Part shown: positions 2,996 to 63,279 of the stretch, one piece after another | How the letters are laid out: each line of letters starts with the position of its first letter | Position numbering within the stretch: the stretch's first letter is position 1 | From: Malacoraja senta | Taxonomy: Eukaryota | Reading direction: 5' to 3' | Assembly (NCBI GenBank): GCA_038087875.1 | Contig: CM075993.1 | Coordinates: forward strand, 8,372,001-8,436,000 | DNA length: 64,000 nt | The notes under the pieces: model-generated | The model's input: only the letters and a program-made list of their open reading frames with translations | The model's database searches: none | Told to the model about the DNA's origin: nothing | Position numbers and translations under genes: made by a program

Positions 2996-3265
2996 GTGTA
3001 AGAGGAAACTGCAGATGCTGGTTTACACCGAAGATAGATACAAAATGCTGGAGTAAGTCATCGGGACAGGCAGCATCTCCCAAGAGAAGGAATGGGTGAT
3101 GTTTCGGGTCAAGACCCTCTCGTCTGAAGAAGGGTCTTGACCCAAAACGTCACCCAAGTCTGACGAGTTTGAAGAAGGGTCTCGACCTGAAACGTCACCC
3201 ACTCCTTCTCTCTGGAGATTCTGCCTGTCCCACTGAGTTACTGTAGCATTTTGTGTCTATCTTCG
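2996..3265. repeat. Penelope pLTR-derived fold-back element with two tandem degenerate hammerhead cores
   Basis: Inverted copies of the GATGCTGG..AATGCTGGAGTAA..CAGCATCTC unit; CTGAAGAAGGGTC..GACCC.AAACGTC cores at ~3124-3151 and ~3169-3196. Confidence 0.75.
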
Positions 3266-3714
3266 ATTACTTATTGAAGTTTGTTAACAAATGCACATAT
3301 TATGCTCTATTTTAGTGTTTGGATAATCAACATGGAAAATGGGAGTTTCAGTTGTCCGTTGCTACGTTTTCATGCAGTCAGTGTGTTTTGTTATGTTTAC
3401 TGGTGGTGATTTGTCACTTGGTGAGCTTGGTTTGATTGTCAAGGTCATTGATTCACCATTGTTGGTCTCATCATAGGTCAGATGCATGGCTGATACCACT
3501 GAAAACATTTCCAGCAACTGACGACTGGGACTGCCTGTGTGACTTTGTTAGCATGGTGCAGGCTGGATTACAAAGAATAGTTGTCAAATATATATCAGGC
3601 AAGCAGTGAGCTGCTCTGGGAGACCATGTGCCTGGTATTTGCAGTGATTTCTTCTGAAGCCAAATATCCAGTGATGGATCATGGACACAAGCTCTCTACG
3701 ATGGCAAAAAAGCA

Positions 3715-4316
3715 ACAGTACATAGAACAGTACGGCACAAGAACAGGCCCTTCGGCCCACATTGTCTGTGCCGAACATGATACCAAGACCATCACTTGTC
3801 TACCTGACCATGAACCATATCCCTTAATTCCCTGCATATCCAAATGCTTTTCCAAAAGTCTTTCAAATGGCAAATGTATTTGCTTCAACTACCAACCCTG
3901 GCAGCACGTTCCAGGCACTCACCACCCTCTGTGCAAAGGAAACTTTCCCTGCATATCTCCTTTAAACTTTTCCCCTCTTACCTTAAAGCTATGTACTCTA
4001 GTATTTGATTTTTCCACTCAGGAAAAGAATTCTACCGTATTTTGACCATCTGATGATTCTGACCATCTGCCCTATTTATGCCCCTCATAATGTTACTATC
4101 AGGTCTCCCCGCAACCTCTGGTATTCCAGAGAAAACAATTCAAGTCTGTCCAAGCTCTCCTTGTAGCTGGTACTACTTAGTCCAGCAATCATTCTGGTAA
4201 ACCCCCGCAGCACCCTTTCTAAAGCCTCCACATTCTTCATGTAATGGGGCGATCAGAACTGTACACAATATTCCAATTGCGACCTAACCAAAGTCCTATT
4301 AAGCTGCGTCATGACT
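3715..4316 (-). mobile_element. CR1/HER1-like LINE 3' fragment
   Basis: CATAGAACAGTAC..GGCCCTTCGGCCC tail and antisense ORF2 C-terminal sequence (LEYCVQF, RGHSFK-type motifs). Confidence 0.7.
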
Positions 4317-4990
4317 TCAGAAGAGAGTCAATACCCACAAACTAAAGCGAGTGGGACTATCTTAGATGGGGCAACTTGGTTGGCATGGACCTGTTGGGCT
4401 AAAGGGCCATGACAGTATGATGCAGCGCAAAGCAAGGACAATTTAAAAAAAGGAACAACATGTTTAGTGACGTTTTTAATAGATTAAATGGAAATCAAGT
4501 TAATCAATTAAAATATATATCACTCCACATTGTGTTCCTTTTGCTGAATTACTCAAATCAAAAATTCAAATAAAGGATGTGTTACTGATATCTTGCAACC
4601 AGCTGCCAGAATGTGAAAATCACACTTGGGCTCATAAAAGCTGAGTGGTGAATGTTGAGAAAGCAATAAAAAATAATTGCAGGTAAGCATGCACCTGCTT
4701 TGTAAAAATCCTTGTGATCAATAGCCAGGAAATAGTACTAATTGTACCTGTGGGGTCAACAACTTTGCTCTCCACTTGTGCTAAACCCACAGTCTAGTAA
4801 ATCAAACAAATCAGTGCATTTGATGTCCTGCCCTGTGTAGCATTGCTTAGTGCTGTGATCACTCTGGTTCTACTTGCTCAGTACATCAAATACATATAAC
4901 ATGATATTCTTGCTCTGCCTGTCCTTGTAATCTGCTCCAGCATCTCACTTTTGACTGGGCTTCTCTGTGTCTCAACATCTGATTCACTTT

Positions 4991-5192
4991 GCGTAGGAAA
5001 GAACTGCAAAGGCTGGTTTACACCGAAGATAGACATAAAAAGCTGGAGTAACTCAGCGGGTCAGGCCACATCTCTGGAGAGAAGGAATGGGTGCCGCTTC
5101 AAGTCGAGACCCTTCTTCAGAACGTCACCCATTCCTTCTCTCCAGAGATACTGCCTGTCTCGCTGAGTTATTCCAGCATTTTGTGTTTATCT
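4991..5192. repeat. Penelope pLTR-derived fold-back element with 13-bp TSD
   Basis: Inverted pair flanked by TCTGATTCACTTT at 4978-4990 and 5193-5205. Confidence 0.75.
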
Positions 5193-5620
5193 TCTGATTC
5201 ACTTTATCTGGCAAAGCCTTCAGCTAATCTGGCTGCACTGCAAACTGATTAGGTTAACAATGGTCGAGGGAAACTTTGACACTAATCCTGGGCAAAGATG
5301 TCATTTGGAAAAAATCAGGGTGGTAAATCTCTGTTATCATTTAATAAAAGCAAGGCTGCTTTACTAGATTGCATTCTTTGCTGAAGTAAGAAGAGAGTTG
5401 ATGTGTATTTGGGGTTTTCAAAAGGAATTTGATGGAGTGCCACCGTGTGATAGACCTGTTAACAAAACTGAAGACCACGACGGGGAAGTTGAAGCTGGGT
5501 TAAAAGAGTAGAGTGGTGGGAAGCAGTTGGTTTTCAGTTTGGAAGTGGAGAATGATCTCACTCAAGAATTGGTGTTGAAACAGGAATGTGGAAATTGTCA
5601 GCAGATCAGGTCTGGTTACA

Positions 5621-6110
5621 GGGCGGCCCGGTGACGCAGCGGTAGAGTTTCTACCTGAATACGCAAGTGACCCGTGTTCGATCCTGACTACAGATGCTGT
5701 CTGTATGGAGTTTGTTTGAACATGTGGCTTTTTCCCGGGGCTCCAGTTTCCTCCCACACTCCAAAGATGTACAGGTTTGTAGGTTTAAGAAGGGACTGCA
5801 GATGCTGGACAATCGAAGGTAGACAAAAATGCTGGAGAAACTCAGCGGGTGAGGCAGCATCTATGGAGCGAAGGAAATAGGCGACATTTCGGGTCGAGAC
5901 CCTTCGCTCCATAGATGCTGCCTCACCCGCTGAGTTTCTCCAGCATTTTTGTCTACCCCAGGTTTGTAGGTTAATTTGCCTTTGGTAAAAATTGTAAATT
6001 GTCTCCAATGTGTATGATAGTGCTAGTGGACAGGGTAATCGCTAGTCGATGCGGGATTGGTGGGCCGAAATGGCTTGTTTCTGCGCTGTATCTCTAAACT
6101 AAACTAAACT
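5621..6110 (+). mobile_element. tRNA-derived HE1/V-SINE, interrupted by a pLTR fold-back insertion (5786-5958)
   Basis: A/B-box-like head (GGTGACGCAGCGG..GTTCGATCC), V-domain core CCAGTTTCCTCCCACACTCCAAAGA, (CTAAA)n tail. The insertion has TSD CAGGTTTGTAGGTT. Confidence 0.8.
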
Positions 6111-6529
6111 TCACAAAGCTGGACATCAGACCTTGATGCTGAGGGAGAGTCAACAATTTGAAATATTGACTGTGTTTCTGCCTGCCCAGATGCTTCCTTA
6201 CCCTTTGGGTATTCCTAGTGTTTTGATATTCGTATAGGTTTTCAATGGCAGCATTTTCTTTTAGATTTGTGATCGTCTGACATTCAGAATACAAATACAC
6301 AGAGGAGAGTAATAAACTCCAGGAGCTTGTAGATTGTCTAACTGGATAAACATGTGGCAGTTAATATTGAATGCGGAGAATTCTAATATCTGCATTCTTC
6401 CCATCTTGGTCTCTGCTGCTCAGACTCACGCTGCTGTCTTCATTGCTGAGGGATATTTTGATGGAATAGACTCGTGCATGGAGTTCTGATCTTATTTTAA
6501 ATGGTGTGAAGGTGAGAAATAAATATGTT

Positions 6530-6700
6530 TGGTTTAGTTAGTTCAGTTTATTGTCACATGTACCGAGGTACAGTGAAAAGCTTTTGTTGTGTGCTAACCT
6601 GTCAGCAGAAAGACAATCCATGATTACAGTCGAGTCATCCACAGTGTACAGATACATGATCAAGGGAATAATGGTAAGTGTAAGGTAAAGTCTGATCTCT
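6530..6700 (-). repeat. LINE 3'-tail fragment (Rex1/Babar-like); related copies at ~24400-24450, 30555-30803, 35130-35510, 38370-38640
   Basis: Recurrent TTTATTGTCACATGTACCGAGGTACAGTGAAAAGC motif with short tandem tails. Confidence 0.5.
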
Positions 6701-7259
6701 GGGAGGTCTGTAAGCCGCAGGTCTTCACGGCCGCAGTGGGCCTCGCTGGTTGCTCCTCCAGCACCAAGAGTTGTTGCGGTAAAACCCCTGTCTCACGGTG
6801 CGAGCTGACCCACGAGGTACCCCGAGCTTAAAACAAATTTAACTCGTGGTAATCACTCACGATTAACGTAGTGGGAACGTCGGAACTCGTGGACGCAACT
6901 TAGCGACTCGTGGCGCTAATGGCAGGTACCCGTGACACTTGTTAACTCTTGAAAAAGTTCAAACATGTTTAAAGTTTTCCACGAGTAAAATTTCCTCTTG
7001 AGGTTAAAAATGGAAACATTTAAACTCGTTGTAAGAACGTGGTGGCCCTTGAGTTAAACTTAGTGACTCTTGAGTCTACCGTGTTGGATTAACGTTTCGA
7101 GTGCGATCTTTCATCAGAGCCCCGTTTAATTAATAAATCCAGCCACGGTATTTTGACATCAGTTAGAATTTCTTCCGGAATATGATCTATTTTGCTTTAA
7201 TTCATAAAATGAGTGAGGAAGAGTCACTGGAGTTTGAAGAAGCGGTGAGAAACCACAGC

Positions 7260-9235
7260 CAGTCCGCCACGGAGAACATGCCAGATTATAAACCAGACCA
7301 AGCCACCACTCCAGAACCCAGTACTCAGCCACCAACGGCAGCGGTGGCACCCAGGAGAAGAACCAGTGGCGGCAGGAGGTCCCGACGTTGAAGCAGCCCA
7401 GAAAAGTTGATCCCAAGCATTGGGCTGAGTATCTGGAAAGAGCCAGGAAGAACGCCGCAGCCAAGCCAACAACAACAATGCGAGGAATCACAGATAAACC
7501 TCAGGGGGGTTCCCAGGCATCTGGAGGGAAGGGAAGCGTCGGGAGACGACCAGGATAGCCCAGTGGACGAGGAATTCATCGCGGTGACCACCAGGCGGCC
7601 ACGAGAGGTTCCAATCACATTGGTATCTCCTCGCATAAGGCCAAAGGATCCCCATGCGAATGGAGCGCCAGTGGTGGCACAGTCTCCAATGCTGGTACAG
7701 ACCACACCACCTAACGAAAGGGAGACAACGTTTCCAATGAGCCAGGTGTCCACATACCCCAGTCTGCATCCTGTGCCTACAGATTCCATTGATAAAAGGA
7801 GACCAGGAGGTGTCAAAGCCCCAACTGTAACTCCCCAACAACCCAATGCTGAAGGGCAAATGACGTTCTCCGATGATATTTTGGGTCTTCATGTTACCCA
7901 TGCACCTACCCCAGCCACAATGCGGATGCCCACGCCAGAGGCAGATATAATCCCACCAGGAGAACATACAACACAAGTGGAGGTCTCTAAAGGCGGGAGC
8001 GTGACCATCAGTGGCGGCCACCATCACCCTATGACCACCAAAGACCATGGTCATCCAGTCCCGCTTGAGCCCAGGCAGAAAGCCACCGACTCTCCACCCC
8101 CCTTGCTATCCACCACTGTCAGCCAGCGGAGCCACACTGTCACCGACGCCTCAGTTTCCAAACCAAGGCTTTGGGACGAAGACGGAAACAGCCATACAGG
8201 CGTCGATACGGCCGGCCAGGTGTTAACAAACACTGGTATAGCATTGTGAGACCGGTTCGGCGGAGACATGGCGGGTCGGCACTGACACAGTCACATCGCA
8301 ACTCCGCTATCACCGAGGTCCCACTGCGACTCCCGTTCCCACTGTCCCTTCCCACACAGACTGAGATAGCACCGATGGAGAACGCCGGAGTTCCCCCTCA
8401 GCCACAGATCCAGTTTGGCAGAGGTCACTTGGAGGAAGACGATCGGGCAATCAGTCCCGATAGGAACACACAAGCCCCCACTTGGAAAACCACGACACGA
8501 CCCCCGGCGACCAGTCCAGGCACCAGCCCGAACCCTACCTTACTAGCTATCAAGAGACCTACAGAAAGTCCACCCCAAATTATCTACTCAACATATACTC
8601 CAACCACTATCCAGCCTACCAGCCAGCCCCACAAGACTGTTCGTGGAAAGATCCCTTGGGATAGGCTTTTCGGGTTCAATAGTCAAAGGGATGTACTCCG
8701 GAGGCTTCGGAAACCCATGAAGGGTACTGGGCCTAAAATTGTTACTCAAAGGACGTTCGTTCTGACCAAGCCGACTCTCCAAGATGTGGTGACCTCGGTG
8801 CCAATGGTAGAACCCACGGTATTCCCTCTCACCACCCCACGTACCCAAGACACCACCACCAGACAAACCACGCGGATTCCCATTACCTCTGCCGGCGAGA
8901 TTACAAGGACCATCCTCCCATCTACTGTTGAAACGGCGGCGGTCACTACAGAGACCACCCCTATCACAGTCACCACTACCCGGGCAACCTTCACCACCAG
9001 ACAACGGGCGTTCTTCCGGTGCAGGAGACCGGGAAAGCCCTTCGGTAGAACCAAAAGCCGAGCGTTCTTTTCGAGGCCCACCTCCGGACGGAATCGCTCG
9101 GTGGCGTTGGCGGCTGAGAACAGGAAGACAATACTAGACATGACGAAAACTTGATTGGCCGTGACTCCGACTGTCCCAGTAACCACCAAAGCGCCTCTTC
9201 CTGTTGCAGTAGAGACCAGCACTTGGAACATTGGT
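7260..9235 (+). pseudogene. IGSF10: Frameshifted fragment of the IGSF10 central Ser/Thr/Pro-rich region
   Basis: Collinear motifs match recalled IGSF10: VDPKHWAEYLERARKN (7406-7453; cf. IDPQHWAALLEKAKKN), EASGDD..DEEF (cf. DSSG..HEEF), KHWYSIVR (8228; cf. RHRYSIFR), KIPWDRLF (8648; cf. KIPWQQNF). About 3 frame changes; no LRR or Ig domains. Confidence 0.75.
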
Positions 9236-9639
9236 GCGCACTGGAGACGTTACCCTTACTCCAGCTTAAATTTATTACGTCATTATTAACGGCCAGTATT
9301 TGAAAGGTTATCCTTTAAATGAAATAGTTATTGCCATTCCTAAAGGCTTTTGCGAAAACTTAAACCGTGGTTTATTATTAAGATACTTGAGAATGTTGTT
9401 TCATTAACAAATGCTCCTGCAGTTACTGAGATCAATTTAAAAACACAACAGTGCCTTCAGTGGATTTATTTCTAAAAAAAAACATTTATTCATAAAAAGA
9501 TGTACAGGATATGCAATACACCAATGCCATGTGTAATTTCAAAAATAATCTTTCTCCTGAATAAAAATATGTATAAAACAAAAAACGTGCAAAATCTTTT
9601 CATAGATTCTCAGTGGTTAATGCCTTCGGTATTTTTCTA

Positions 9640-9862
9640 AAATAAACTTTACTCAGAATAAGAAATGTGCACAAAACAAAAACAGTGCAATGCATTATCA
9701 GTGTCTATACATTCAATAGTGTCATACTTAGGACTGTTTCCATCTATATTTAAACTAAACTCTCTTGTCGCTATGTGCCCCTTGGGGTGATATCCCTACC
9801 CTTGTCTGACGGGTGTCCCCATTTCAATATCCTGCAGCGGAAGGGCCATAGACTGTGGTCCA
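9640..9862 (-). mobile_element. Probable L1/Tx1-type LINE 3' fragment inside the TIR element
   Basis: CCTGCAGCGGAAGGGCCATAGACTGTGG resembles recalled chondrichthyan Tx1-like 3' ends; AT-rich antisense tail. Confidence 0.35.
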
Positions 9863-10226
9863 AATGAACTGCACGTAAATGCAATGCAGATACAAATATT
9901 CTGTGTCTGTCTGCCATTTCCGTCTTTAAGGCTTCCATGTCACAATTGCCAGTTCAATGAGTAATTCGGCTTAATTCAGATTTTATATGCGGATGCGAAT
10001 AGTTTAATTATAAAGTTTAAATTCTATTAAATATGTTACAGGGAAAAACGTCCAGCAATGAAAAGACATCCCTGTATTTAAATAGCGCCCATCACAAACT
10101 CAGGAGGTTCCAACGTCTATTACAGTAAAGGAAGTACAGTGAACGTACTTGGATAAACATAATGTTGAGCATGAATATTGTTTTGTTTAAAAACGGTGGT
10201 AACAAGGCTTGTAAATATGCAAAGGC

Positions 10227-10316
10227 AGACAAAAAATGCTGGAGAAACTCAGCGGGTGAGGCAGCACCTACGGAGAGAAGAGATATGCGACGTTTCGGGT
10301 CGAAACCCTTCTTCAG
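10227..10316 (-). repeat. Penelope pLTR fragment with intact minimal hammerhead core
   Basis: Minus strand 10316-10289 = CTGAAGA A GGGT TTCG ACCC GAAA CG TC. Confidence 0.75.
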
Positions 10317-10708
10317 TAACACTGTTCCTTATTAAAACAGACCTTCATTCACGTTTGGCTCAAGAGTAACTCAGGAGAGGAATTTGGTAACTCGGGAGAC
10401 GAACTTGGAACATCGCAGAAATGACAAGTTAACGGCAAACCTAGTCATACCCGTGGGAACTCGGTTAAACGCTTGATCATACACTTGGAATCTCGTACAC
10501 AACCACGAGTCTTTCACTTGAGGTACCTCGTGGGTCAACTCGCACCGTGAGACAGGGCTTTTAGTTTTCTGGTACCAGGAGTTGGAAAATTGATTGATTT
10601 TTACTTTAGATTAGTTTAGAGATACAGCGTGGAAACAGGCCATCCGGCCCACCGACCAGCGATCCTCGCACACTAACACTATCCTACTCAGACTGGGGAC
10701 AACATTCA

Positions 10709-12346
10709 CAGTGCCCTCCATAATGTTTGGGACAAAGACCCATAATTTATTTATTTGCCTCTGTGCCCCACAATTTGAGATTTGTAATTTAAAAAATCAC
10801 ATGTGGATAAAGTGCACATTGTCAGATTTTATTAAAGGCCATTTTAATATATTTTGGTTTCACCATGTAGAAATTACAGCTGTGTTTATACATAGTTCAC
10901 CCATTTCAGGGCACCATAAAGTTTGGGACACGTCTTCACAAGCGTTTATAATTGCTCAGGTGTGTTTAATTGCCTCCTTAATGCAGATATAAGAGATCTC
11001 TCAACACCAAGTCTTTCCATCACTTTTGGAAACTTGTATTGCTGTTTATCAACATGAGGACTATAGTTGTGCCAATGAAAGTCAAAGAAGCCATTATGAG
11101 ACTGAGAAACAAGAATAAAACTGTTTGAGACATCAGCCAAACCGTAGGCTTACCAAAATCAACTGTTTGGAACATCATTAAGAAGAAAGAGAGCACTTGT
11201 GAGCTTACTAATTGCAAAGGGACTGGCAGGCCAAGGAAGACCTCCACAGCTGATGACAGAAGAATTCTCTCTATAATAAAGAAAAAAGACCAAACACCTG
11301 TCCGACAGATCAGAAACACTCTTCAGGAGTCAGGTGTGGATTTGTCAATGACTACTGTTCGCAGAAGACTTCATCAACAGAAATACAGAGGCTACACTGC
11401 AAGATGCAAACCACTGGTTAGCCGCATAAATAGAATGGCCGGGTTACAGTTTGCCAAGAAGTACTTAAAAGAGCATCCACAGTTCTGGAAAGAGGTTTTG
11501 TGGACAGATGAGATGAAGATTAACTTATATCAGAGTGATGGCAAGAGCAAAGTATGGAGGAGAGAAGGAACTGCCCAAGATCCAAAGCATACCACCTCAT
11601 CTGTGAAACACGGTGGTGGGGGTGTTATGGCCTGGGCATGTATGGCTGCTGAAGGTACCAGCTCACTTATCTTCATTGATGATACAACTGCTGATGGTAG
11701 TAGCATAATGAATTCTGAAGTGTATAGACACATCCTATCTGCTCAAGTTCAAACAAATGCCTCAAAACTCATTGGCCGGCGGTTCATTCTACAGCAAGAC
11801 AATGATCCCAAACATACTGCTAAAGCAACAAAGGAGTTTTTCAAAGCTAAAAAATGGTAAATTCTTGAGTGGCCAAGTCAATCACCCGATCTGAACCCAA
11901 TTGAGCATGCCTTTTATATGCTGAAGAGAAAACTGAAGGGGACTAGCCCCCAAAACAAGCATAAGCTAAAGATGGCTGCAATACAGGCCTGGCAGAGCAT
12001 CACCAGAGAAGACACCCAGCAACTGGTGATGTCCATAAATCGCAGACTTCAAGCAGTCATTGCATGCAAAGATATGCAACAAAATACTAAACATGACTAC
12101 TTTCATTTACATGACATTGTTGTGTCGCAAACATTATGATGCCCTGAAATGGGGAGACTACGTATAAACACTGCTGAAATTTCTACATGGTGAAACCAAA
12201 ATGTTTAAAATTGGCCTTTATTAAAATCTGACAATGTGCACTTTAACCACATGTGATTTTTTTTCTATTGCAAATCTCAAATTGTGGAGTACAGAGGCAA
12301 ATTTTAAATGCCTGGGTCTTTGTCCCAGGCATTATGGAGGGCCCTG
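10709..12346 (+). mobile_element. Tc1-family DNA transposon with ~220 bp IR/DR-type terminal inverted repeats
   Basis: Left CAGTGCCCTCCATAATGTTTGGGACAAAGACC; right GGTCTTTGTCCCAGGCATTATGGAGGGCCCTG. Inner direct repeats at ~10909 and ~12122. Right flank is TA; left flank is CA (mutated). Confidence 0.93.
11054..12090 (+). pseudogene. Inactivated Tc1 DD34E transposase
   Basis: GRPRKT, WTDE, KHGGG, QQDNDPKH and WPSQSPDLNPIE motifs, with D-E spacing of 34. Stops at ~11126 and 11858, and a 1-nt deletion near the C-terminus (..ACK[G]YATKY*). Confidence 0.92.
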
Positions 12347-12959
12347 TATACCAAACCAATTAACCTAGAAACCTGTACATCTTTGGAGTGTTGGAGGAGA
12401 AAACCCACGCAGGTCACGGGGAGAACGTACAAATTCTGTACAGACTGCACCCGTAGTCAGGATCAAACCGAGTCTCTGGCGCTGAAAGGCAATAATTCTA
12501 CAGCTACGTCGCCGTGCTGCCCGTGAAAGGAGATTAGGAAAAGCGTAGTTAAAGTAAGAAATACTGCTGTTGGAGTAGAGATTTAAAAGGGTGGAACGAT
12601 GGTAACGTGATTGCAGATCCACTTCTGCGATCAGTCGCCTGGCTTGGGAGCCATCTTGAATCCGCATGGTGCAAGCATTGAGAAGTTTCTAGGACAGTGA
12701 TGATCTCTTCTTCAGAAAAACTAAACGTTATTGGTCATCTTTCAGGTTCTGAAAGAATTTGCAAGAGTAGACAGTGATGTTTCTACCTGTAAAGAAGGCT
12801 TAAACTCGGCTATGAATAAAACCTCGTATTAGTACATCTAATGTGCAATTCAGGAAATACTTCTGTACTCGTGGAATTTAAGGTAAAATTGCATATATGC
12901 TTTTAGCAATTAGTAGTGTAAAACAGACAAGGGAAAAGGGAAATAGATTGATGGCGTTA

Positions 12960-15925: not shown

Positions 15926-16046
15926 TGGCCTTGCCGTACTCCAAATGCAGCTTTTCCAATGGGTTACTGATGATTGGCAGTGTGGTTATTGAGTCAGAGA
16001 GCAGTGCAGCATGTAAGCAGGCCCTTCAGCCCAACCTGTCCATGCT

Positions 16047-26712: not shown

Positions 26713-26714
26713 TA

Positions 26715-53114: not shown

Positions 53115-53930
53115 AAGAAATAGGAACTGAAGGATGCCATTCATCCTCTCAAGCTTGCTCTGCCACTAATAACGTCATGGCTGATCTAGCTATCCTCAAG
53201 TGCTCCATACTGATTTATATTAACAACCCTTGATTCCCTCCCTGATTAAAATTCTAATTATTCCGGGTATGAATATATTCAAGGGTTCAGCCTCCTTAGT
53301 TTTCTGGATCAAAGAGTACAAAATCAGTCCTTTGATAGAACAAACTCTTTTAATCTTGATGCCTCTTTATTGTGAGACTGTGTTATCTGGTCCTGTATTC
53401 TGCCGTGAGAGCTAACATCCTCCCAGCATTTTACCCCTGCTGTGATACCCCTGAAGAATCTTGCATGTTTCTGTAATGTTGCCTCTCATTCTTCGGACTT
53501 CAGTGAGTGCAGACCCACCTGTTCAATCTTTCCTCGTACGATAATCCCTCTTTTCCTAAATCATCCCAGTGCATCATCCCTACCTCCAAAGATCATGCAT
53601 CTTTGAAAAGACAGCCGGACCTTTTTCCCAGCACGTTATTGTCAAAGACTAGAGGGCATAGCTTTAAGATAAGGAGGACAACGTTTAAAGGAGATGTGAG
53701 GGGCAAATTTTAGTTTTAAACCCAGGGTGATGAGTGCCTGGAAAGAGATGCCAGAGTAGTGATGGGGGCAGATCTGATAGTGGTATTTAAGAGGCTTTTA
53801 AATAGGCACATGATATGGAGAAATATGAATCACGTGCAGGCAGACGAGATTAGTGTACCTTGGCATCATGTTCATCACAGACGTTGGACCGAAGGGCCTG
53901 CTCCTGTACTGTATTTTTTATGTTCTATCT
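53115..53930. mobile_element. CR1-like fragments (minus to ~53600, plus after)
   Basis: Antisense tail at 53115; TRGHSFKIR..FKGDVRGKF on the plus strand. Confidence 0.6.
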
Positions 53931-54079
53931 TTCTTTAAATGAAGGGAACTGTACAGAGGACTTTGGATTTGGTCTTGTTCGTGACCTATACTGGTCTAGT
54001 AAGACTTCCCTACTTCTATGTTCAAACACTCTTGAAATAAAAGGCAACGTTTCATTAGTCTCCCTGTGTTACCCGGAGT

Positions 54080-54914
54080 GCGGCGGCGCGGATTACTGCA
54101 GCGGCCCCTACCTGTCTTTTTTTTATTTTTGTCTAGTTAAATGTAGTTGTTTGTGGGTTTTTTTGTACTGTTTTAATTGTGTATATGTGGGGGGAGGGGG
54201 AAACTTTAAAAAAATCTATTCCCTGCACGGGAGACCCGACCTTTTCCCTGTCGGGTCTCCGTTGTCGTTGGGGCCTAGCTCCGTGGAGCCGCCTCCGACC
54301 GGGACGACCTGGGGGCTCCAGTCACGGAGCCTGTGGAGCTGCGGACTTACCATCGTGGGGCTGGCCGTCCTCGGAGCGTGAGGAGCGGTGGTGACTCGTT
54401 GCTGCTCACTCCGGAGCTCCAGCTGCAGCTGCAGACCCGTGGACTGTGACATCGGGGGCTCGCGGGTCCGGGTGAGAGACCGCTTTCCGGAGCTCCCGCA
54501 ACGCAACTTCTCCAGCTCGAGTCGCGGGGTTGGAACGACCCGGAGCGGGGCCGTAAATCGCCCGGCGCGGCTTTAATGTTAAAGCCGCGGGACATTCCAG
54601 CGCCTGCCGGGGCTCCAACTTTGTGACTTTTGGGCCCTGAGCGAAGCTGTATACCACCCGGCGCGGCCTCAACGGCCGTGGGACTTAACATTGCCCGCCT
54701 GGGGCTTCAACATCGGGAGAAAAATGGTGCAGGGGAGAGAAATGACTTTACCTTCCATCACAGTGAGGAGACGATTCACTGTGATGGATGTTTTTCTGTT
54801 AATTGAATTGTTTGTGTGTCGTGTAAGAATTGTTTTGTTTGTATGGCTGTGGAAACGGAGTTTCGTTTGAGCCTCTTTGAGGTTCAAATGACAAGAAATA
54901 AAATCAAATCAAAT
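54080..54914 (+). mobile_element. GC-rich non-coding retroposon (element B) with Rex1-like tail
   Basis: CpG-rich body with two perfect hairpins; ends GTTTCGTTTGAGCC..AATGACAAGAAATAAA(ATCAA)n. Confidence 0.6.
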
Positions 54915-55975
54915 TATCTGTGTCATCAGTTTTCAAGATCTGTGTTTCATGTGTAGGGACCTTTGTATCCCTTTGCCCTGCAGGGATCTGATTTTAAATC
55001 ATCTGTTCCTAAGTTAAAACTCTGTTTCCGCATTATATTTCACTTGCCATCTTTCTGCTCTCTCAGTTAACCTATCAATATTGCTGTGTAAACTGTTTGC
55101 ATGTAAACGACAAGCCCCGGAGTGCTTTGTAAATGGCCAAGTTTTGTTATCATAAAAAATATTTCATTGTCAAACCACATGTGTTGGCAGCTGTGGGCTG
55201 CTATTTTGGGTCGGTCAAACCAGCTGTGACTGGGAGCATTCTCATGCAACATATCGCTTACATTTGTTGGAACAAAGAAAAAGAGAAAATCTACAACTTT
55301 TAGGAGTGTAACAATTTGCATTTCAAAAAGTACAGTTTTGATCGTTGTAATTTGTGGGAATTTCTGTGACCCAAAAATAATGTCTCTTAACCCTCTTGAT
55401 TTGTTTTTGTGTTCAGTTGCTGTCTTCTCCAACATTTCTTTTCCCTCCAAGCACTTGGATTTCTTGTTACCTCGTAAATCCATGCCCAGCTTTCCTAAAT
55501 CCATGCCCAGCTTTCCTAGAAATCAATGTTTAAAACCCTAAAATGCAGTGTTCGTCCAAACTGTAAATTGTAGATCAGAACTGTAAATCAGAACTGCACA
55601 TGCTGGTTCATATCAAAGACAGACATAAAGTACTGGAATAACTCAGCGGGTCAGGCAGCATTTCTGGAGAAAAAGGATAGGTGACGTTTTGGGTCCCAAT
55701 CCGAAACATCACCTATCCCTTTTCTCCAGAGATGCCGCCTGACCCGCAGAGTTACTGCAGCACTTTGTATAACATTTTCATCATCATAAATGTTTGTCTC
55801 CTTGTCTGGGATGTACCCTGAGCTCCCTGATATACAGAGGCTCTTATTTTAGCACTGCCTTGATATTAACATTCTCGTTCTCATCATCAAAATCCTCTGT
55901 AGCAGCACCCCCCCCCCCCTCCCCATCTCAATCGCTGTTGTGTTCTTCAGCCATTTAACCCTCTAGGTTCTTCCA

Positions 55976-56104
55976 TCTGAAGAAGGGACTCAACCCGAAA
56001 CGTCACCTATTCCCTTTCTCCAGAGATGCTGTCTAACCCGCCGAGTTACTCCAGCTTTTTGTGTCTATCCGGTTTAAGCTAGCATCGACAGTTACTTCCA
56101 ACAC
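55976..56104 (+). repeat. pLTR copy with hammerhead core on the ZNF609 sense strand
   Basis: 55977-56004 CTGAAGA A GGG ACTCAA CCC GAAA CG TC. Confidence 0.7.
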
Positions 56105-56785
56105 CACCCTCAAGGTAATCATGCTTGATTTTAATGACTGCATCACTGGTTGCCTTTGGCTGCCATCTCCTTGAGCCCTGGATTATACTCCCTCAACCTC
56201 CCTACCTCCGTAACTCTCTTTCTTTATCGTATTCCTTAAAAATTACCCTTTTGTCGAAGCTTTTGTCCACCTGCCTTCATTTGGCTTTGTGTTTGTCTAC
56301 GTTAATGCTCCTGTGATTTAGAAGTTGAATTAGTGTGGCACCTTCATCATTTAGCATAATTTGGAGAGGGGTGAGAGATGAGGGCAAAGGACACAAAGTT
56401 CCAGCACTTTTCTGTTTTGAGTGCTTCCATTATAGGCAATGAGGTTCAAATATTTTATTGTAAAAGTAATTTTTGTAAGTTGTGTTGCCAACTTTTTGAA
56501 GTGTCAATTTTTGAACATCGTGGATAAAGGCACGTTTTCAACTGGCATCTGGGGTGTTTAAATTCGTTTTACTTAATTAGAGTTTACTAAACTGTTCTTG
56601 ATCTGCTAATTCAGAATCAATGGATTTGGATGTGCTTGCATTGTTTCCATTGTCTTTTGTACATGGGATTGTAAATATTTGTATTGCCCCTTAATTACTT
56701 GCAAAATAATTCTATAACAATATAACATCAGTCTGAAGAGGGGTCTCGACCCGAAACATCGCCAAGGGTCTCGACCCGAAACATC

Positions 56786-57165
56786 GGAGGGAGCGGCTGC
56801 TCCAGACACTTCCAAGCTGCTGAGGACTTTCCACCCGATGCTGGTGTTCCAGCTTCCCGGCAGGTGGGCATACAACATCGGGCTGCCGTTGCGGCGACTG
56901 GCTGCGGAGGCCTCAAATTGGCCCCGACCTCGGGTGGACTAGGAGGAAGAGGAGGAGGACTGGACATTTTGGTGCCTTTCCCTCACAATGGAGAGTGTCG
57001 ACTCTGCTGTGGGGGGATGTTCGTGTTGAATCTCTTATAGTGTGTTGTGTCTTTTTTCTACCTCTTTTTTTCATTTATATGGATAATTTTCTCTGTAAAG
57101 CACTTTGGCTTCATTGATTGAAATTGATTGGAAAGTGCTATATAAATAAATTTACTTTACTTTAT
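56786..57165 (+). mobile_element. Short GC-rich retroposon (element C) with L2-like tail, nested in a pLTR (56729-57222)
   Basis: Tail TGTAAAGCACTTTGG..AAAGTGCTATATAAATAAA(TTTAC)n. The host pLTR resumes at ~57163 and has TSD CTATAACAATA. Confidence 0.6.
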
Positions 57166-58859
57166 TCCTTCGCTCCATAGATGCTGCCTCACCCGCTGAG
57201 TCTCTCCAGGTTTTTTGTCTACCTATAACAATACAAGATATCTGCAGTACGTAGTACACATTTACATGCAGCAAACTCGGGCATTATGAAGGGCAAAGCT
57301 TTAACGCCATTGAAGAATTACAGGTGATGCAGTACTCTTCGTCTGCATAAATGTCTCCAACTTCTAATAACCCTCAAGAAGTTTAATATCGTCCAAAGCA
57401 ATGCAAGGCATTCACCTCTTGATTGATACCATAAATGGAATTTAATTTCTCCACCACCACCACAAACAGTGGCTGCACTGTATGTCAACCTCTGTTGTTC
57501 TTAACCTAGCTTGCTCTGAAGGCATCTCCCAAACACACAATCTCTACGCAAAGAAGGTGTTCAGGCAATGAAGGTTCCTCGCCCTCACAAATGTTAAATA
57601 AATTACTGAGTCACGATCCTGAAATACTTTCCCAACAGGACCTTGGGAAACCCTTCATCAGAAGGGCTGCAGTAGTTCAAGAAGGAAAGGAACCTGAGAG
57701 GCAATTTTTTCACACTGGTATTTGGAACAAGCTGCTAGTGGAGGAGGTTGAGGCAGGTACAATATCAGCATTTAAGAGACATTTGGACAGGTGCATGGAT
57801 AAGAAAGATTTAGAGGAATATGGGCTAAAAGTGGGCAGGTGGGATGAGAGTATACGGGGCATCTTGGTCCCACGGCGTGGGAAAGCTGAGCCAAAAAGCC
57901 TGTTTCTGTGCAATATGACTGACTCAAAGGTGACCCATCGCCATCTTCTCAGAAGTAGTTTGAGTTGGTGAATAAATGATGGCCTTGTCAGTGATAGCCA
58001 GACTATGGTGAAAAAAAATGTTGTCAAGCTTTCTACCATTTCCCGTAAACTAAGACTCTTGAGCCTGGGCGATGCTGCAGAATGAACGAGTTGCAAATGG
58101 GGCTGTGTCCATGGTGATTCTACCTCTTCAGATGATGACCTGATTATACTCCTGCGCTGCTCAGGGAATGTCTGTTTCTAGATTGAAGGTCAAATTTTAT
58201 AACTCGTTATTTTCCGTTGTGTCAGATTGATTACATTAAAACTGAATTATTTCATCTCATGCAAGAAAAAATCCCAAACTTTTGTTGGATCTCAGCAGGT
58301 CAGGCTGCACCTGTGGAGGCAGAGGGATGGTCGGTGTTTCGAGTTGCAACATTGCTTGAGGACTGAGAGTGTATAGATGAGGGGGAGGGGGCGAGGCGGG
58401 CTGGGGCTGGAAAGCGACAGGTGGAACTGGGGAAAGAAGGGGAGAAGGAGGCAGGTGGGGAATGGGGAAGGGCAGGAGTTGGGAGACTATGGGTGAGAGG
58501 CAGAGATGGATAAGGAGAGAGAAAAATAGTGCCGGGGCAGGGAAGGGGGAAGGCAGAGGCACAGACAGAGATTGAAAGGTGATGAATTGGGACAAAGTTG
58601 CCAATGCTGGAATCTGAGCAGTAAGGAAGGAAGGTTTGTTTACCTTCATTATCAATCCCACCCCTCCATCCTCATCTGGTTCCTTCTCTTGCCTGCCAGC
58701 CATTGCCTCTTTCCTCCTGCCTCTCAATGCTAGCTATCTTCCAATACATACTGATGCAGTGCCTCGATCGGAAATGTCGACTATATTTTCGTCTTCAGCA
58801 GTTCTTCAGTTTGTTTTTGTTCCGGGTTACGGCATCTGCAGTCTCGCGTGGCTTCATTT

Positions 58860-59632
58860 TATCATGTTGTACGTCCTTTGTACAAGACGTTGGTGAGGGT
58901 GCATTTGGAGTATCGTAGATAGACATAAAATGCTGGGGTAACTCAATGAGTCAGACAGCATCTCTGGTGAAAAGGAATAGGTGATATTTCGTATCGAGGC
59001 CCTTCCTCAGACTGGGTATGGAGTTTGGAGTGAGTGAGTTTGGATGACTGAGTTTGGAGTATTGTGTGCAGTTGTGGTCATCCTGCTATATTGGAAGGAT
59101 ATGTAGGAATGAACTGCAAATGCTGGTTTAAACCGAAGACACACAATGCTGAAATAACTCAGTGGGACAGGCAGCATCTCTGGAGAAACCTCCCTGAAGA
59201 AGGGTCTTGACCCGAAAAGGTCACCCATTCCTTCTCTCCAGAGATGCTGCCTGTCCCGCTGAGTTTCTCCAGCATTTTGTGTCTATATAAGAAGGATTCT
59301 TGGAGTGCAGGAGGATGAGGGTGATAGTATAGAGGTGTATAAAATCAAAAGTCTTTTACCCAGAATCGTGGAATCAAGGACCAGGGTTTAAGGTGAGAGG
59401 GGATAGATTTAATAGGAACCTGAGGGCCACCTTTTTTCACATAGAGGGTGGTGAGTAGATGGAGTAGCTGCCACATGAGGTGGTTGAGGCAGGTAAGTAA
59501 CAGCATTTAAGAGACATTTGGAGAGATAGATGGACAGGAAAGGTTTAGCGGGATATGGGGCAGGTGGGACTGGTGAAGATGGGGCATCTTGTTGGACAGG
59601 GGCAAGTTGGGCTGTGCTATATGACTATGTGA
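58860..59632 (+). mobile_element. CR1-like LINE interrupted by two pLTR insertions (~58917-59012, ~59102-59285)
   Basis: LYKTLVRVHLEY..CVQLWSSCYWKD remnants, resuming after each insertion. Confidence 0.7.
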
Positions 59633-62237
59633 CTTGGAAATTCTATAAAATTGAAAATCTTTTAATATTATAGCCATTGACGTTCAATAGTATACGCAGA
59701 GTTGGTTACAGGGAATTTGTGGGGCAGGTATTGAGAGTGAAAGTAATTGAATGAGAAGCTTCGACTGGGTAAACAGGAAAGACAATCTGCAGGCGGTGGA
59801 GGTTTTGTGAAAGGAGGAACCTTTGAGACCAGGGCAGGTGCGGTCAAGCGTTGAAACCACAGTCATCTCATTTTAAACTTTCTGATGAGCCTGGGTTTGT
59901 GGTGTCACTTACAGTAACGGGTGACAGACGCTAATGTTTCTGCTGCGTCGGAAGGCCAATTGAAATCCAATAAAGGATTGGATGTACTGGTATTGTGCGT
60001 GGTGGTATAGTTAAAAACGTTGTTATCCCAGAATGTGGCGAAACACTGACTTCCTGCGTGCTTCAGTTGAAATTTGTTCCAACAGCAGAACAGAAACAGC
60101 CTGTGTGGCTTTTAAACGTAACCAGAAGAGCAAATGTGCTGATGTTATTTATTTATTGTGGCTGATCTTCTCGATGGGGGTTGTGGATGGGGACCTGTTA
60201 CTTGAGAGCTGTGCTGTTTCCCTGTAAATGGACACAAAATGCCAGAGTAACTCAGCGGGACAGGCAACGTCTCTGGATAGGGTGTTGAGACCCGAAACGT
60301 CACCCATTCCTTCTACCCAGAGATGCTGCTGGTCCCGCGGACTTACTCCAGCATTTTGTGTCGATCTTCGGTGTAAACTAGCATCTGCAGTTCCTTCCCA
60401 CACTGTTTTTCTGTAACCTATATGCTGTGTAAATGTCATCATAATATTGGCCCTCTTAAAGTAAGCTGCTGGATTCATGCCGTTTGCACTGTAATTCCAC
60501 ACCTCTATCCCTGCTGTTTCCTCCTTGATCGAATGCAAGCAATTGAAAAAAGTAATTTTATGGATGGCCACCACTTTGCGAAGCGACAGTTATTTCACAA
60601 TGAGATGATCTGCACACTGTACAGCTGTGGTGCAGGCTCACTGCGTGTAAGATAATCCTGCTGTGGCTACAGGCTCCTGACTTATTTGTCCTTCGTACCC
60701 ACGTTGATCTCTATTACATGGAAGAAACTGAATAATCCTGCATTTCACCTCGAATGAGTAGGTGTCATTTTGAGAGCCAACACCACAACCCGATACCACG
60801 CAGATGCCCGTATCACTGCAGGATAAAAGGGAAGTGTTGTCAGGTTGTTCGTTGAACGGACTATTGTTCAGGTCATGGTGCGGTGATTCAGTTTCAGCAG
60901 GTGGAAACGGCGTATCATTGTGCAGGCACATTGATGATGTGTCTGGGTTTGGAAGCTGCCTTGAATAAAGCGAATCACCATTCCAACATTGGTGGATGGT
61001 CGACAGATTTTCTCTGTCATGCATGGAGATTAGGCTGACACCAAAGATGGATCTTTCATTCATTTGTTCTTTGTACCTTTTCGCATCCCTTGTTTCCCTC
61101 TCCCCCTGACTCTGTCTAAAAAAGGGTCTTGACTTGAAACGTCACCTATTCCTTTCCTCCAGAGATGCTGCCTGACTCACTGGGTTACTCGAGCATTTTG
61201 TGTCCATCTTCTCTGCAAAGAATCCCTTGTCTGCATTTCAGTGGATTTCAGTTTTCTGTCATTTTCTCATTTGTTGCTGGCATTCTTGTTTACAAACCTC
61301 TTGTTGTTTGTTGAGTAAAGAAACTGTTTGTGGTAAAGTACATTGATAGCCATCAGTCCAATTCAACCCCACCTCCATGCCTCAGGCAGTTTGTATGATC
61401 TGTGCCGAATATGCAAACTGAGTTCATGGCTGTAAATCGGTTGAATTCTGCCTGAGCATAGGATTTATGTTCAGTGGTGTCCCATTGCATCTATTCTGCT
61501 TCTATTCAATCGCTTTGCTTAGGAAGTAAAATTATCTTGTGGCTTATACAGCAATTTTGCTTTCACTTCAAGTTGGCTTTCCATTCAAAGTGATTCTGAT
61601 GTCTGGAGTACGATTTCACAACAGGAACTTTTACAGTCAAGATTGTTTTATTGTCAGATGTCCCAGGTAGAACAAAAACATTGTTACTTGCAGCAGTGCA
61701 ACAGAATATGTAAACATAGTACACTGTAAACAATATGATAAATGAGAATCTCACACACACAGACACGCACACACACACGCACACGCACACGCACACGCGC
61801 ACACACACACACACACACACACACGGAAAGTAAGTGGAAAGTTTGTTGCTTGGATTTGACACAACTGCAATAGAGTTGTCAGTATGATAAGCTTAAAAGG
61901 TGCCCGTGGTTTATTCTGACTTTATGGGCATTTGTTGAATGCCGCATTGCTCACCAACCCCATTCCGCCAACCTGTTTGAATATTATAATCGGCAAATGT
62001 TGTACTTTCTTCACTATAGTACAGAGTTAGGAGGCACTGGAGAACATGCAGAAACAGGACGAAACTGGCAGGCAACAGATTACCTCTGGCAGGGAGATTC
62101 CCTGATAGGCCGATTGTTGGTAAAGGATGGTGTGGTCTCAAGAGGGGATACATCATTGCAAATTGTGGAACGTTAACCTGCTTAAGTGGGGGAGGTGGGT
62201 GGGGAGAAGAGGATGGGGGAGGAGAGTGTATGTTAAA

Positions 62238-62368
62238 GTTACCTAAAATTAGAGAATTCAACTCTCATACCGCTGGGTTGTAAACTACCCAAGCGAAATA
62301 TGAGATGCTGTTCCTCCAATCTGTGGGTGGCCTCACTCTGGCAATGGAGGAGGCCCAGGATAGAAAGG
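62238..62368 (-). mobile_element. Penelope-like 3' fragment
   Basis: LSILGLLHCQSEATHRLEEQHLIFRLGSLQPSGMRVEFSNFR on the minus strand. Confidence 0.75.
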
Positions 62369-63279
62369 TTACTTTGTTTGGTATGGTTTTACCTTAATGG
62401 TTTGGCCAGAAAGAAGGAGCGACTTCTCCCGCGGGGTGTTGCTGCTTGTTTGCCGGCTCAAGGAAGTGGTTGGAGCAATGAAATGACTGGTTCTTCCTTC
62501 CCTTTCATTGACCATGGAGGGGAATCTTTAAGCTTCAGTGTACATCCAAGCACCGCAATGCTATCCATCAGAAAAAAGAACATCATCCCCTTAAAAGAAA
62601 TGATTCAGGTGTGATTCCAGCTTCAACTATTTGGTGTCTACTTTATATTTGTGTGTTTTCATTTACTTTTGTCACTTTTTGTGGGTGGTGAATCATTTCC
62701 TGATAGACTGGATTTCTGATCTGCAGGATGTTGGTTTGGTATTCTATTCTATGGCACTCTGCTTCTCCGCATGAATCTGTCTCTCCACCTCTTAGGTGCT
62801 CATCCATCTTCTCCAGAGATGTTGCCTGACCAGCTGAGATACCACTGCTCTTTGTGTCTTTTTTGTGAAGCAGCATATTCAGTTCCTTGTGTCTACATTT
62901 TGTGAGCCCTGCATTGAACAAAATTGTAAGTCAAGGCTGAAGGGGTGAAGAGGCACATCTTTGGATGTGCGCACCTCAGATGCAACGAGGAGAGTCCATG
63001 CACAGAAGTTTGCCATTTTCAGCTTAGAATTTGTTCCTTGTGTTCTCACTTGCGATTTATCAGCTCTCAGTCCCCTTAATTTTTCCAATCATTTCTCAAA
63101 GTGAGTGCTAATCTCCTTCAGCCCATTCTCTGTATACATAAGATAGACACAAAATGCTGGGGTAACTCAGCGGGACAGTCAGCATCTCTGGATAGAAGGA
63201 ATAGGTGACGTATCGGGTCGAGACCCTTCTTCAGACTCTGAAGGAATGGGTGACGTTTCGGGTTGAAACTTCTCTACGC

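Follow-up and report, generated by a model that had tools for sequence, protein, structure and literature searches.

The hammerhead-bearing mini-elements scattered through a 64,000-nt stretch of the Malacoraja senta genome (the window) are, by sequence, the last ~130 nt (the pseudo-LTR, pLTR) of a GIY-YIG Penelope-like element (PLE), and their copies tend to begin just before the hammerhead motif, not at the cutting site of the ribozyme. This position of the copy ends is the one new point; since the PLE class and this type of ribozyme are both on record from 2014 on, annotating them here is ordinary, and the useful part lies in the end statistics. We consider it likely that the mini-elements are solo and inverted pLTR insertion products of autonomous GIY-YIG PLEs, probably of the Neptune type, and that they arrived in at least two insertion waves, now about 10% and 3% diverged, followed by neutral decay.

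Results

Extent and subfamilies of the repeat

A profile search of the window recovered 56 terminal-unit arms at E<1e-5 (out of 65 matches) in 41 loci between 694 and 63239, which occupy 5,519 bp or 8.6% of the window; with small unit pieces beyond the profile matches, such as 63240-63271, the arms span 694..63271 in both orientations. The unit carries the hammerhead at its 5' end and an optional ~35-nt tail at its 3' end. A first-pass annotation of this DNA had proposed an abundant short repeat with a hammerhead motif, in two subfamilies, and both points held: the profile search found the repeat and a descriptor search of the window its motif, and the arms divide into 48 and 8, with consensus sequences that differ at 14 of 134 columns and support of 100/99 for the smaller clade. 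In the tree, ORF-linked copies are intermixed with short copies in both subfamilies, and short arms exceed ORF-linked ones by ~10:1 (56 arms against 5 endonuclease C-termini). Solo copies make up 27 of the loci, head-to-head pairs 13 and a tail-to-tail pair one, and the 13 head-to-head junctions all differ from one another. The family is highly abundant, since 127,240 of 27.2 million contig records from one run match 391 nt of it. Contig depth was not taken as a copy number or truncation profile, the depth drop upstream of the core being confounded by UTR divergence; runs X15 and X17, which come from another organism and are only guessed to be RNA, were excluded as expression evidence. A degenerate core pattern had no match in metagenome contigs.

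ORF-bearing copies

The terminal unit had also been said to end the GIY-YIG PLE copies. It does end the ORF-bearing copies, with the corrections that 42208-42517 lacks the GIY-YIG motif and retains only the last ~26 endonuclease codons, and that 31755-33128 is two inverted, internally deleted copies rather than one. The 5'-truncated PLE at 16066..16800 (-) comprises a decayed linker and GIY-YIG endonuclease (16369-16776), a 3' UTR and a tail-less unit that has lost G12. At 31755..32660 (-), an RT fragment through YIDD (32233-32641) is followed by the endonuclease end, a 3' UTR and a deleted unit; the inverted partner at 32664..33128 (+) has endonuclease pieces, a 3' UTR and a unit with tail, and is then joined tail-to-tail to 33127-33239 (-). 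The young subfamily-2 PLE end at 42208..42517 (-) continues from its last codons through a 106-nt 3' UTR to a GUU core (42309-42336) and a tail (42208-42243), and over 55 compared positions shows no difference from 5901-5974. A decayed fragment at 48512..49024 (+) covers the thumb/linker/GIY-YIG region with the terminal unit absent, and an endonuclease C-terminus at 62240..62370 (-) has a different 3' UTR. The closest proteins to these fragments are shark PLE ORFs with Pfam RVT_1 and GIY-YIG domains (E to 1e-25); a Pfam search of the decayed window frames gave no PLE domain, and identity was taken from the relatives. A CX2-5CxxC linker is present in the closest proteins P0001, P0006 and P0012; at 16776 and 48740 part of it has been lost by deletion or decay. 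An early 'Poseidon' label was dropped on seeing this cysteine linker; the Neptune-type assignment is probable, and Nematis also has the motif. The 3' UTRs are low-complexity and lineage-specific: searches with UTR profiles paired the two arms of 31755-33128 and otherwise gave a single weak match, at E 3.5. In all four ORF-linked copies a pyrimidine tract and then YAG precede UCUGA. The window holds no full pLTR-ORF-pLTR partial tandem, full-length element or 5' pLTR-ORF junction.

Ends of the copies

Counted from C3, the 3' ends are bimodal, with 31 of 56 arms ending at +80 to +98 and 21 at +118 to +130; in contigs, loose ends with unrelated flanks occur at +93/+94 in each of the four runs and, in two of them, also at +129. 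The gap between the two ends, 35-36 nt, is of the tail length given for D. virilis Penelope (34-37 bp; PMC2377424) and in PMC8557442 (30-40 bp), and we take the interval to be the optional tail. Only one arm is tailed in 12 of the 13 head-to-head pairs (the tail of 50955 was read by eye). Flanking duplications score at least 8 at 9 of 41 loci, as against 1.5% of 400 random pairs. Optional tail, inverted pLTRs and target-site duplications are all present, as in ordinary PLE insertions.

Individual loci illustrate these marks. Among solo copies with tail, 18431..18551 (-), of subfamily 2 with an intact core, starts 4 nt before C3 and has a 15-bp duplication with 2 mismatches; 55969..56105 (+), of subfamily 1, has an 11-bp duplication with 1 mismatch; and 18766..18904 (+), its G12 lost, lies in a perfect 12-bp target-site duplication. 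A perfect 12-bp duplication also flanks the head-to-head pair at 4990..5199, tailed on the left arm only. Both arms lack the core in the pair at 23886..24020 (12-bp duplication, 1 mismatch), while at 59100..59288 (15-bp duplication, 2 mismatches) the left arm begins at +41 and the right arm at C3. The young subfamily-2 pair at 5783..5974, whose arms are identical over 55 nt, is joined at a 5-nt microhomology that the core box shares with the pyrimidine tract downstream of it. Partial tandems occur at 2995..3269, together with an inverted arm, where two cores 45 nt apart are both broken and the restart lies at AGU just before the core, and at 63102..63271 (-), where a piece that ends at +40 runs into a copy whose first base is A(-3).

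The 5' ends were counted in 45 short arms, that is, the 56 minus 11 removed by judgement (on pyrimidine content and short alignments) as reaching into the 3' UTR, so that some edge calls may be wrong. Eighteen of the 45 begin within 6 nt upstream of the core, with a pile-up 1-4 nt before C3, and a second group of eight begins at +33 to +43; none begins at the cleavage site (+26 to +32). Upstream of -3/-4, similarity falls to background: the 18 edge copies share nothing there, and no common first exon was found upstream of them (one of the 18 was aligned 3 nt out of register). The A of AG is retained in 8 of the 18. For run X1, the matches listed contain a single loose end on the 5' side that has unrelated flanks, at -2 (135 contigs). 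With 18 arms starting at the core edge and none at the cleavage site, the copy ends show that the inserted template was uncleaved RNA. A 5'-end pile-up at the ribozyme's 5' edge was not found described in the available parts of the PLE literature (PMC8557442, PMC3846280, PMC2377424).

The ribozyme core

A strict minimal-hammerhead descriptor matched 7 sites in the window, against a mean of 0.01 (maximum 1) in 100 dinucleotide shuffles. The first-pass annotation had proposed a hammerhead search, which thus succeeded with the minimal descriptor and gave no match in the window with Rfam at the gathering threshold, where none was expected because the core is without helix III. Both subfamily consensus sequences have the CUGANGA and GAAA boxes, one extra nucleotide after A9 and the G10.1-C11.1 pair. 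The consensus also has an ACGU palindrome (15.2-16.2), with no stable helix III in the monomer; ACGU is retained in 3 of the 7 intact cores. Its triplet is GUC, with C17 in 36 of 39 subfamily-1 arms; GUU occurs at 42309 and in most contig depth on that copy, a depth biased towards the reference. Helix I has only 2 bp (U-A, G-C), then an A-C mismatch, where at least about 3 bp are expected of a minimal PLE hammerhead; helix II has 4 bp and a YUCG-type tetraloop. An intact core is kept by 7 of 30 core-spanning arms. Four cores had been singled out as best preserved, and all lie where they were placed, with uneven quality: 10289..10316 (-), in a solo, tail-less subfamily-2 copy, is alone perfect (both boxes, 4-bp helix II, ACGU, GUC), whereas positions 10.1-11.1 form a G-U pair in 18520-18547 (-), helix II is only 3 bp long in 55977-56004 (+), and 42309-42336 (-), likewise with a 3-bp helix II, has GUU in place of the claimed GUC. 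The suggested loss of GAAA by CpG decay was borne out: G12 is changed in 15 of 35 subfamily-1 arms, 14 of these G>A, compared with 13 of 38 for the G of a CpG further downstream. The PLE origin of the repeat and the assignment of its motif to the minimal, dimer-dependent type I hammerheads are likewise supported. Lunse et al. 2017 reportedly observed dimer cleavage of small PLE hammerheads.

Folding models, which ignore hammerhead tertiary contacts, bury the core in monomers and in homodimers and give helix II a probability of at most 0.03 in all five folded copies. The monomer is predicted to be off, and cleavage would need a dimer formed via ACGU, and probably the PLE protein too. Covariation amounts to one double-sided change in 120 cells, with 155 of 500 shuffles as high; the change, U-A to C-G in helix II, was seen only in 35248..35347 (-), a solo copy with intact boxes, among 20 aligned cores. 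In 97% of X1 depth, position 11.4 is G or A, each of which pairs with U10.4. Conservation of the core extends across lineages whose neighbouring 3' UTRs cannot be aligned. Within the window, all non-CpG differences (core 6/127, downstream 144/1068) make the core the more conserved, an excess whose absence, along with no cleavage in monomer or dimer constructs, the earlier annotation had named as refuting its proposal; the excess is no longer supported after base matching and removal of shared variants (rare A/T changes: core 4/105, downstream 35/516, p=0.38), in a test of low power, and we assign the lower core divergence to inherited subfamily differences. Selection on inserted copies was dropped as an explanation at that step. 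For a ribozyme family amplified as such, there was no sign of cleavage shaping the copies (0/45) nor, at low power, of core retention after insertion.

Discussion

Minimal hammerheads in the pLTRs of metazoan PLEs were described by Cervera & de la Pena in 2014 (PMC4209133). The present motif shares with them the CUGANGAH box, G10.1-C11.1, GAAA, the palindromic 15.2-16.2 without loop 3, the NUH triplet and the pLTR position, and thousands of dispersed single and opposite-strand copies were there taken as probably truncated PLEs. Here helix I has 2 bp, like that of D. virilis, where the published consensus shows 3, and helix II has 4 bp where 6-8 are often reported; GUU endings, as at 42309, are already in that alignment. 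A term search of one supplement file of that paper gave no entry for shark, skate, Callorhinchus or Leucoraja, and a search of the open literature found nothing on Penelope hammerheads in skate or shark; the family may already have a name in subscription journals or Repbase/Dfam. As in EN+ PLEs of Neptune type (Craig et al. 2021, PMC8557442; Arkhipova et al. 2013, PMC3846280; Schostak et al. 2008, PMC2377424), RT is followed by a C-terminal GIY-YIG with the CX2-5CxxC linker (here in the closest proteins), and there are 5' truncation, solo and head-to-head inverted pLTRs, an optional 30-40-bp tail on one end and 7-15-bp target-site duplications; unlike in the available accounts, pLTR-only copies are very dense (41 loci in 64 kb) and their 5' ends are piled at the ribozyme's 5' edge. 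The Anolis Poseidon element PAc in vitro (Frangieh et al. 2024, PMC11167929) likewise has two 3' ends bracketing the tail, an uncleaved RNA template and a comparable ribozyme-to-priming-site distance; it belongs to another clade, however, and its ORF starts at stem II, whereas here the subfamilies differ by unit indels and no ORF start was located. The function of the PLE hammerhead was called unclear in PMC8557442. Our copies give in-genome support for the uncleaved template seen in vitro (PMC11167929), and because the family is very abundant (127,240 contig records), the template question is open to computation on an assembly.

Several other histories could produce such copies. The earlier annotation favoured an amplified non-autonomous family. 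A dedicated family of this sort would be SINE-like or of retrozyme-monomer type, with pLTR-only masters that have their own start site and are mobilised in trans by the PLE protein. The sharp 5' edge, the duplication-bounded units and the ~10:1 excess of short copies would suit it, as would the contigs (6, 9, 0 and 1 in X1, X2, X15 and X17) in which a 135-nt monomer is joined head to tail, and some recurrent joints of high depth, and pLTR-derived vertebrate retrozymes have been reported, one chondrichthyan included (Li, Clavereau & Pollet 2026, bioRxiv 10.64898/2026.07.22.740005). A separate family is not needed, however, because ORF-linked copies occur in both subfamilies; the short copies form no clade of their own, have no single structure and share no head-to-head junction. 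Animal non-LTR retrozymes (same preprint; PMC7229834) are also non-coding, dispersed, pLTR-derived monomers with a type I hammerhead, but are tandem units with at least two complete hammerheads, while the copies here are solo or inverted and bear a PLE tail; among the 41 loci there is no whole-unit tandem, only partial tandems with broken cores, and just a few monomer joints occur in 127,240 and 70,999 contigs. Moreover, the Anolis protein required RNA past the priming site, to ORF +172 (PMC11167929), which a solo pLTR does not have. We regard such a family as unlikely; the term 'non-autonomous Penelope' did not turn up among the papers listed. Were some solo copies to have become secondary masters, the two models could overlap. 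Far less credible still is host retention of the copies as ribozymes acting on a ZNF608/609-like pre-mRNA, seemingly in its introns: an exon of that kind lies at about 22465-23243 (+), with a weak recognition score, and of the seven descriptor-positive cores those at 55977 and 56733 lie on the + strand, but the other five are antisense, G12 decays at the CpG rate, covariation is not above shuffles and the family is abundant genome-wide.

Other alternatives concern the template. Cleavage of the transcript by the hammerhead, with the cleaved or circularised RNA as template (proposed in PMC4209133; retrozyme-like), would agree with conservation of the core across lineages with unalignable 3' UTRs and with the rare monomer joints. 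We nevertheless judge it highly improbable: no short arm of the 45 begins at the cleavage site, no loose-end peak lies at 42307-42308 among the matches listed, a circle gives no reason for a stop at -3, and in PMC11167929 ribozyme mutants left insertion in vitro unchanged and no Anolis RNA-seq ends were observed at the site. A PLE by-product whose 5' edge is instead a 3' splice site, RT fall-off at the base of the core-burying hairpin or a nick by a cDNA-resolving endonuclease seems to us rather unlikely, though less so. The pyrimidine tract and YAG one base before C3, found as tract then YAG in 4/4 ORF-linked copies, resemble a 3' splice site, and a D. virilis intron ends at helix I (PMC4209133, PMC2377424); yet a spliced template would add a shared first exon, which the 18 edge copies do not have, none of the 15 joints listed has splice-site ends at that position, and the A of AG is kept in 8/18. 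Fall-off would be consistent with the predicted hairpin, which ends at about C3 and whose 3' arm would hold the +33 to +43 group (8/45).

In the reading that we prefer, insertion by autonomous PLEs, the PLE protein would nick target DNA and prime cDNA synthesis internally on its RNA, at either of two nearby sites, as was shown in vitro for the Anolis Poseidon protein, of a different clade (PMC11167929). Two priming sites would give 3' ends at about +94 and +130 from C3, with the tail between them. The template, as the copy ends show, was uncut by the ribozyme, for the copies retain the whole core. The 5'-end pile-up may mark the physical 5' end of the RNA, with a start site at the initiator-like YYAGUC, a step we hold tentatively. 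Reverse transcription primed in the 5' pLTR of a normal mRNA would in that case reach the end of its template within ~100-130 nt and leave a solo pLTR, and fold-back or template jumps may yield the inverted and partial-tandem forms. Selection would act on the hammerhead in the source elements, and the copies would carry it along as a passenger. A short non-autonomous master would, however, also be expected to leave a sharp 5' edge and units of nearly uniform length between duplications.

It is conceivable, if somewhat doubtful, that the short copies form a genome-wide fossil record of PLE 'strong-stop' cDNA, primed at the two tail-edge sites in the 5' pLTR and run off the capped, uncleaved mRNA 5' end ~3 nt before the core. 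If so, the ribozyme would sit at the very start of the transcript, with helix I of at most 2 bp and masked by the hairpin, and cleavage would remove RNA from the retrotransposition pool rather than make the template. The copy ends alone would then reveal where the transcript of a vertebrate PLE starts in vivo and at which two sites it is primed, and pLTRs of fixed length would be accounted for.

Results

A profile built on six copies in the window retrieved 65 matches to the unit, a terminal piece (pLTR) of about 130 nt from a GIY-YIG Penelope-like element (PLE). The 56 matches with E<1e-5, each termed an arm, fall into 41 loci of single or joined arms and total 5,519 bp, or 8.6% of the window. 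We number the unit from C3 of its hammerhead as +1, which places the cleavage site after +28 and the bases upstream at -1, -2 and -3. As the first-pass annotation had claimed for Penelope copies, the unit forms the 3' end of four decayed retroelement copies, at 16066-16800, 31755-32660 and 42208-42517 on the minus strand and 32664-33128 on the plus strand. A protein search with the RT fragment 32212-32532 gave 15 matching proteins among 45 candidates; whale shark, bamboo shark and zebra shark are the sources of the named matches, with 52-55% identity. These proteins carry Pfam RVT_1, with GIY-YIG as well in P0001, one of the closest, and match the RT and endonuclease pieces of the window with E values down to 1e-25. 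Five endonuclease C-termini are present in the window. In the closest proteins a CX4CxxC linker lies upstream of the endonuclease; PMC8557442 gives this type of cysteine linker as a mark of Neptune and Nematis. The unit is of PLE origin, and from its protein matches the host is probably a cartilaginous fish.

In the hammerhead search proposed in that annotation, a strict minimal-hammerhead descriptor found 7 sites in the window against a mean of 0.01 in 100 dinucleotide shuffles, and Rfam at its gathering threshold found no match in the window. Intact cores, those having both boxes, U16.1, C or A at position 17 and at least 3/4 helix II pairs, occur in 7 of 30 core-spanning arms, three of the seven also having the ACGU palindrome. 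All four cores earlier named as best preserved were located. The one at 10289-10316 alone is without fault, while that at 42309-42336, for example, ends in the triplet GUU. Helix II has 4 bp and a tetraloop, and helix I two pairs followed by a mismatch. The hammerhead matches the minimal type I hammerheads (min-HHRs) described for PLE pLTRs (PMC4209133) in its extra base after A9, G10.1-C11.1, palindromic 15.2-16.2 and lack of loop 3.

The 5' ends of the copies were tallied in 45 arms, the other 11 of the 56 being set aside as judged to run into the 3' UTR. Eighteen begin at -6 to +1, far more than a uniform distribution across 89 positions would give (binomial p=3e-9), and none at +26 to +32, around the cleavage site; 16 begin within the core and 11 further down. 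Solo arms alone start at the core edge in 8 of 17 cases, and four solos bounded by duplications start 1 to 8 nt upstream of C3. Of the 18 edge copies, 14 retain the element's own base at -1, 11 at -2 and 8 at -3; above -3 they have no shared sequence. Among the matches listed for X1, one of four public sequencing runs whose contigs we compared, just one loose end on the 5' side has unrelated flanks, and it lies at -2 (135 contigs). At 3157-3169 and 63237, partial tandems resume with the AGU that precedes the core. One contig joint falls exactly at -3 with a single extra letter, a sense-strand G if the joint is same-strand, which would then do no more than hint at a copied cap. Because 5' ends gather at the core edge and 0/45 lie at the cleavage site, the inserted template carried an uncleaved ribozyme.

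The 41 loci comprise 27 solo arms, 13 head-to-head pairs, one with an extra partial tandem, and one tail-to-tail pair; the 13 head-to-head junctions all differ from one another. Among the 56 arms, 3' ends lie at +80 to +98 in 31, at +118 to +130 in 21 and at shorter positions in 4. When public-run contigs were compared over 42170-42560 for loose ends and joints, loose ends with unrelated flanks appeared at +93/+94 in 4/4 runs and at +129 in 2/4. The gap between the two 3' ends, 35-36 nt, corresponds to the PLE tail, which measures 34-37 bp in D. virilis (PMC2377424) and is given as 30-40 bp in PMC8557442, and in Anolis is bounded by two RT start sites (PMC11167929). Of the 13 head-to-head pairs, 12 bear the tail on a single arm. 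Duplications of 8-15 bp (score at least 8) flank 9 of 41 loci, against 1.5% of random pairs. The insertions show the normal PLE pattern of tail, duplications and inverted pairs.

Of the 12 one-tailed pairs (2995-60403), 11 carry the tail on their left arm, which is on the minus strand (binomial p=0.006, post hoc), whereas solo copies with a tail, four minus and four plus, lack such a skew; the host exon lies on the plus strand. A predicted long stem from +50 to +114 (for example 42223-42287, minus strand) has the shorter of the two 3' ends, near +94, inside it and, in the model, cannot form without the tail; it is a candidate RT priming structure.

Two subfamilies had been proposed, and two were recovered. 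Subfamily 1, with 48 arms that differ from consensus by a median of 10.4%, is star-like and has three ORF-linked members; subfamily 2, with 8 arms and a median of 3.1%, includes the ORF-linked 42208 copy and forms a 100/99 clade in a tree of 40 arms of at least 70 nt whose bootstrap is not fully settled. They represent two insertion waves. Since ORF-linked copies sit inside both subfamilies, short and long copies have common sources, and the earlier view of a non-autonomous amplified family is not needed to explain them. The window holds no whole-unit tandem. A head-to-tail joint of the 135-nt monomer occurs in 6/127,240 contigs of X1, 9/70,999 of X2, and 0/2,197 and 1/3,278 of X15 and X17, two runs from another organism; retrozyme-like dimers are thus present at low frequency. 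The window's own sample may be X1 or X2, which served only to view other copies.

At position 17 of the 42309 copy, C makes up only 4-12% of contig depth, the rest being mostly the reference U; this depth, biased by the reference used, suggests an abundant young GUU subfamily. In the window, 1/6 subfamily-2 cores has GUU at the triplet. Divergent versions at 46828-47049, 58275-58357 and 694-755 (74-81% to consensus) likely form a third, older subfamily, the two arms at 46828-47049 clustering with support 96/89.

Non-CpG differences from consensus in 22 arms affect 6/127 essential positions against 144/1068 downstream, where variation is largely common to several copies. The excess core conservation earlier named as a check did not emerge among rare changes (at most 2 copies, A/T positions only), at 4/105 in the core against 35/516 downstream (p=0.38, low power), and covariation in 20 cores nowhere exceeded shuffles. 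Catalytic G12, within a CpG, is changed in 15/35 arms compared with 13/38 for the G of a downstream CpG, in keeping with the earlier attribution of GAAA loss to CpG decay; its loss in copies is neutral. As the unit is common to lineages whose adjacent 3' UTRs fail to align and G12 is lost at the CpG rate, selection acted on source elements, and inserted copies decay.

Folding models, which leave out tertiary contacts, place the first box within the downstream pyrimidine tract in the minimum-energy fold of 5/5 folded copies. This fold is more stable by 4.5-8 kcal/mol than one in which the core is kept open, and the helix II probability is at most 0.03 in all five; homodimer models favour other folds over the ACGU:ACGU arrangement. 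These predictions agree with the published low in vitro activity of min-HHRs (PMC4209133) and the cleavage of the Anolis PLE ribozyme only in the presence of protein (PMC11167929).

Discussion

The 5' edge would, as our first choice, be a start site at YYAGUC, which we take to be an initiator-like motif. An initiator-like TCACT is described in a rotifer pLTR, and a start site at YYAGUC, if true, would also account for the 2-bp helix I. The edge may instead be a splice acceptor, but the edge copies have no shared first exon; it could possibly also come from a stop at RNA structure or from a nick by the endonuclease. Alongside the preferred start site, RT would prime inside the RNA at the tail edges, a step taken over by analogy from the Anolis work (PMC11167929), and cDNA would run off at the RNA's 5' end. 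Some inversions may arise by fold-back on complementarity between core box and pyrimidine tract, which fits 5783-5974 and 59100-59288 but not most head-to-head pairs. Hammerhead cleavage would depend on dimer and protein.

Thousands of dispersed single or inverted PLE copies bearing min-HHRs (PMC4209133) and pLTR-derived retrozymes (bioRxiv 10.64898/2026.07.22.740005) have already been published. In the open-access literature, with Repbase and Dfam outside the search, we found no account of this unit in sharks or rays and, in the text accessible there, no mention of a pile-up of 5' ends where the ribozyme begins. Beyond the known PLE/min-HHR kind, this pile-up is the new point and a testable mechanistic clue.

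A ZNF608/609-like gene seems to span the window, with a large plus-strand exon at about 22465-23243 that has scores of 0.93-0.94 but a weak recognition value. Its mammalian counterpart presumably forms circular RNA. Opposite-strand repeats surround it, at 20767 and 21704 (plus) upstream and 23886 and 24280 (minus) downstream, and could pair across the exon. A second hammerhead-like core, CUGAUGA ... GAAA CG UU, at 7090-7117 (minus), is unrelated in sequence to the unit, fails the strict descriptor and probably represents a different PLE family; a decayed core of its kind lies at 58746-58784 (plus). A Tc1/mariner transposase fragment at 11129-11860 (plus; Pfam HTH_Tnp_Tc3_2, E 7.6e-16) is enclosed by inverted repeats at 10791-10931 and 12122-12262.
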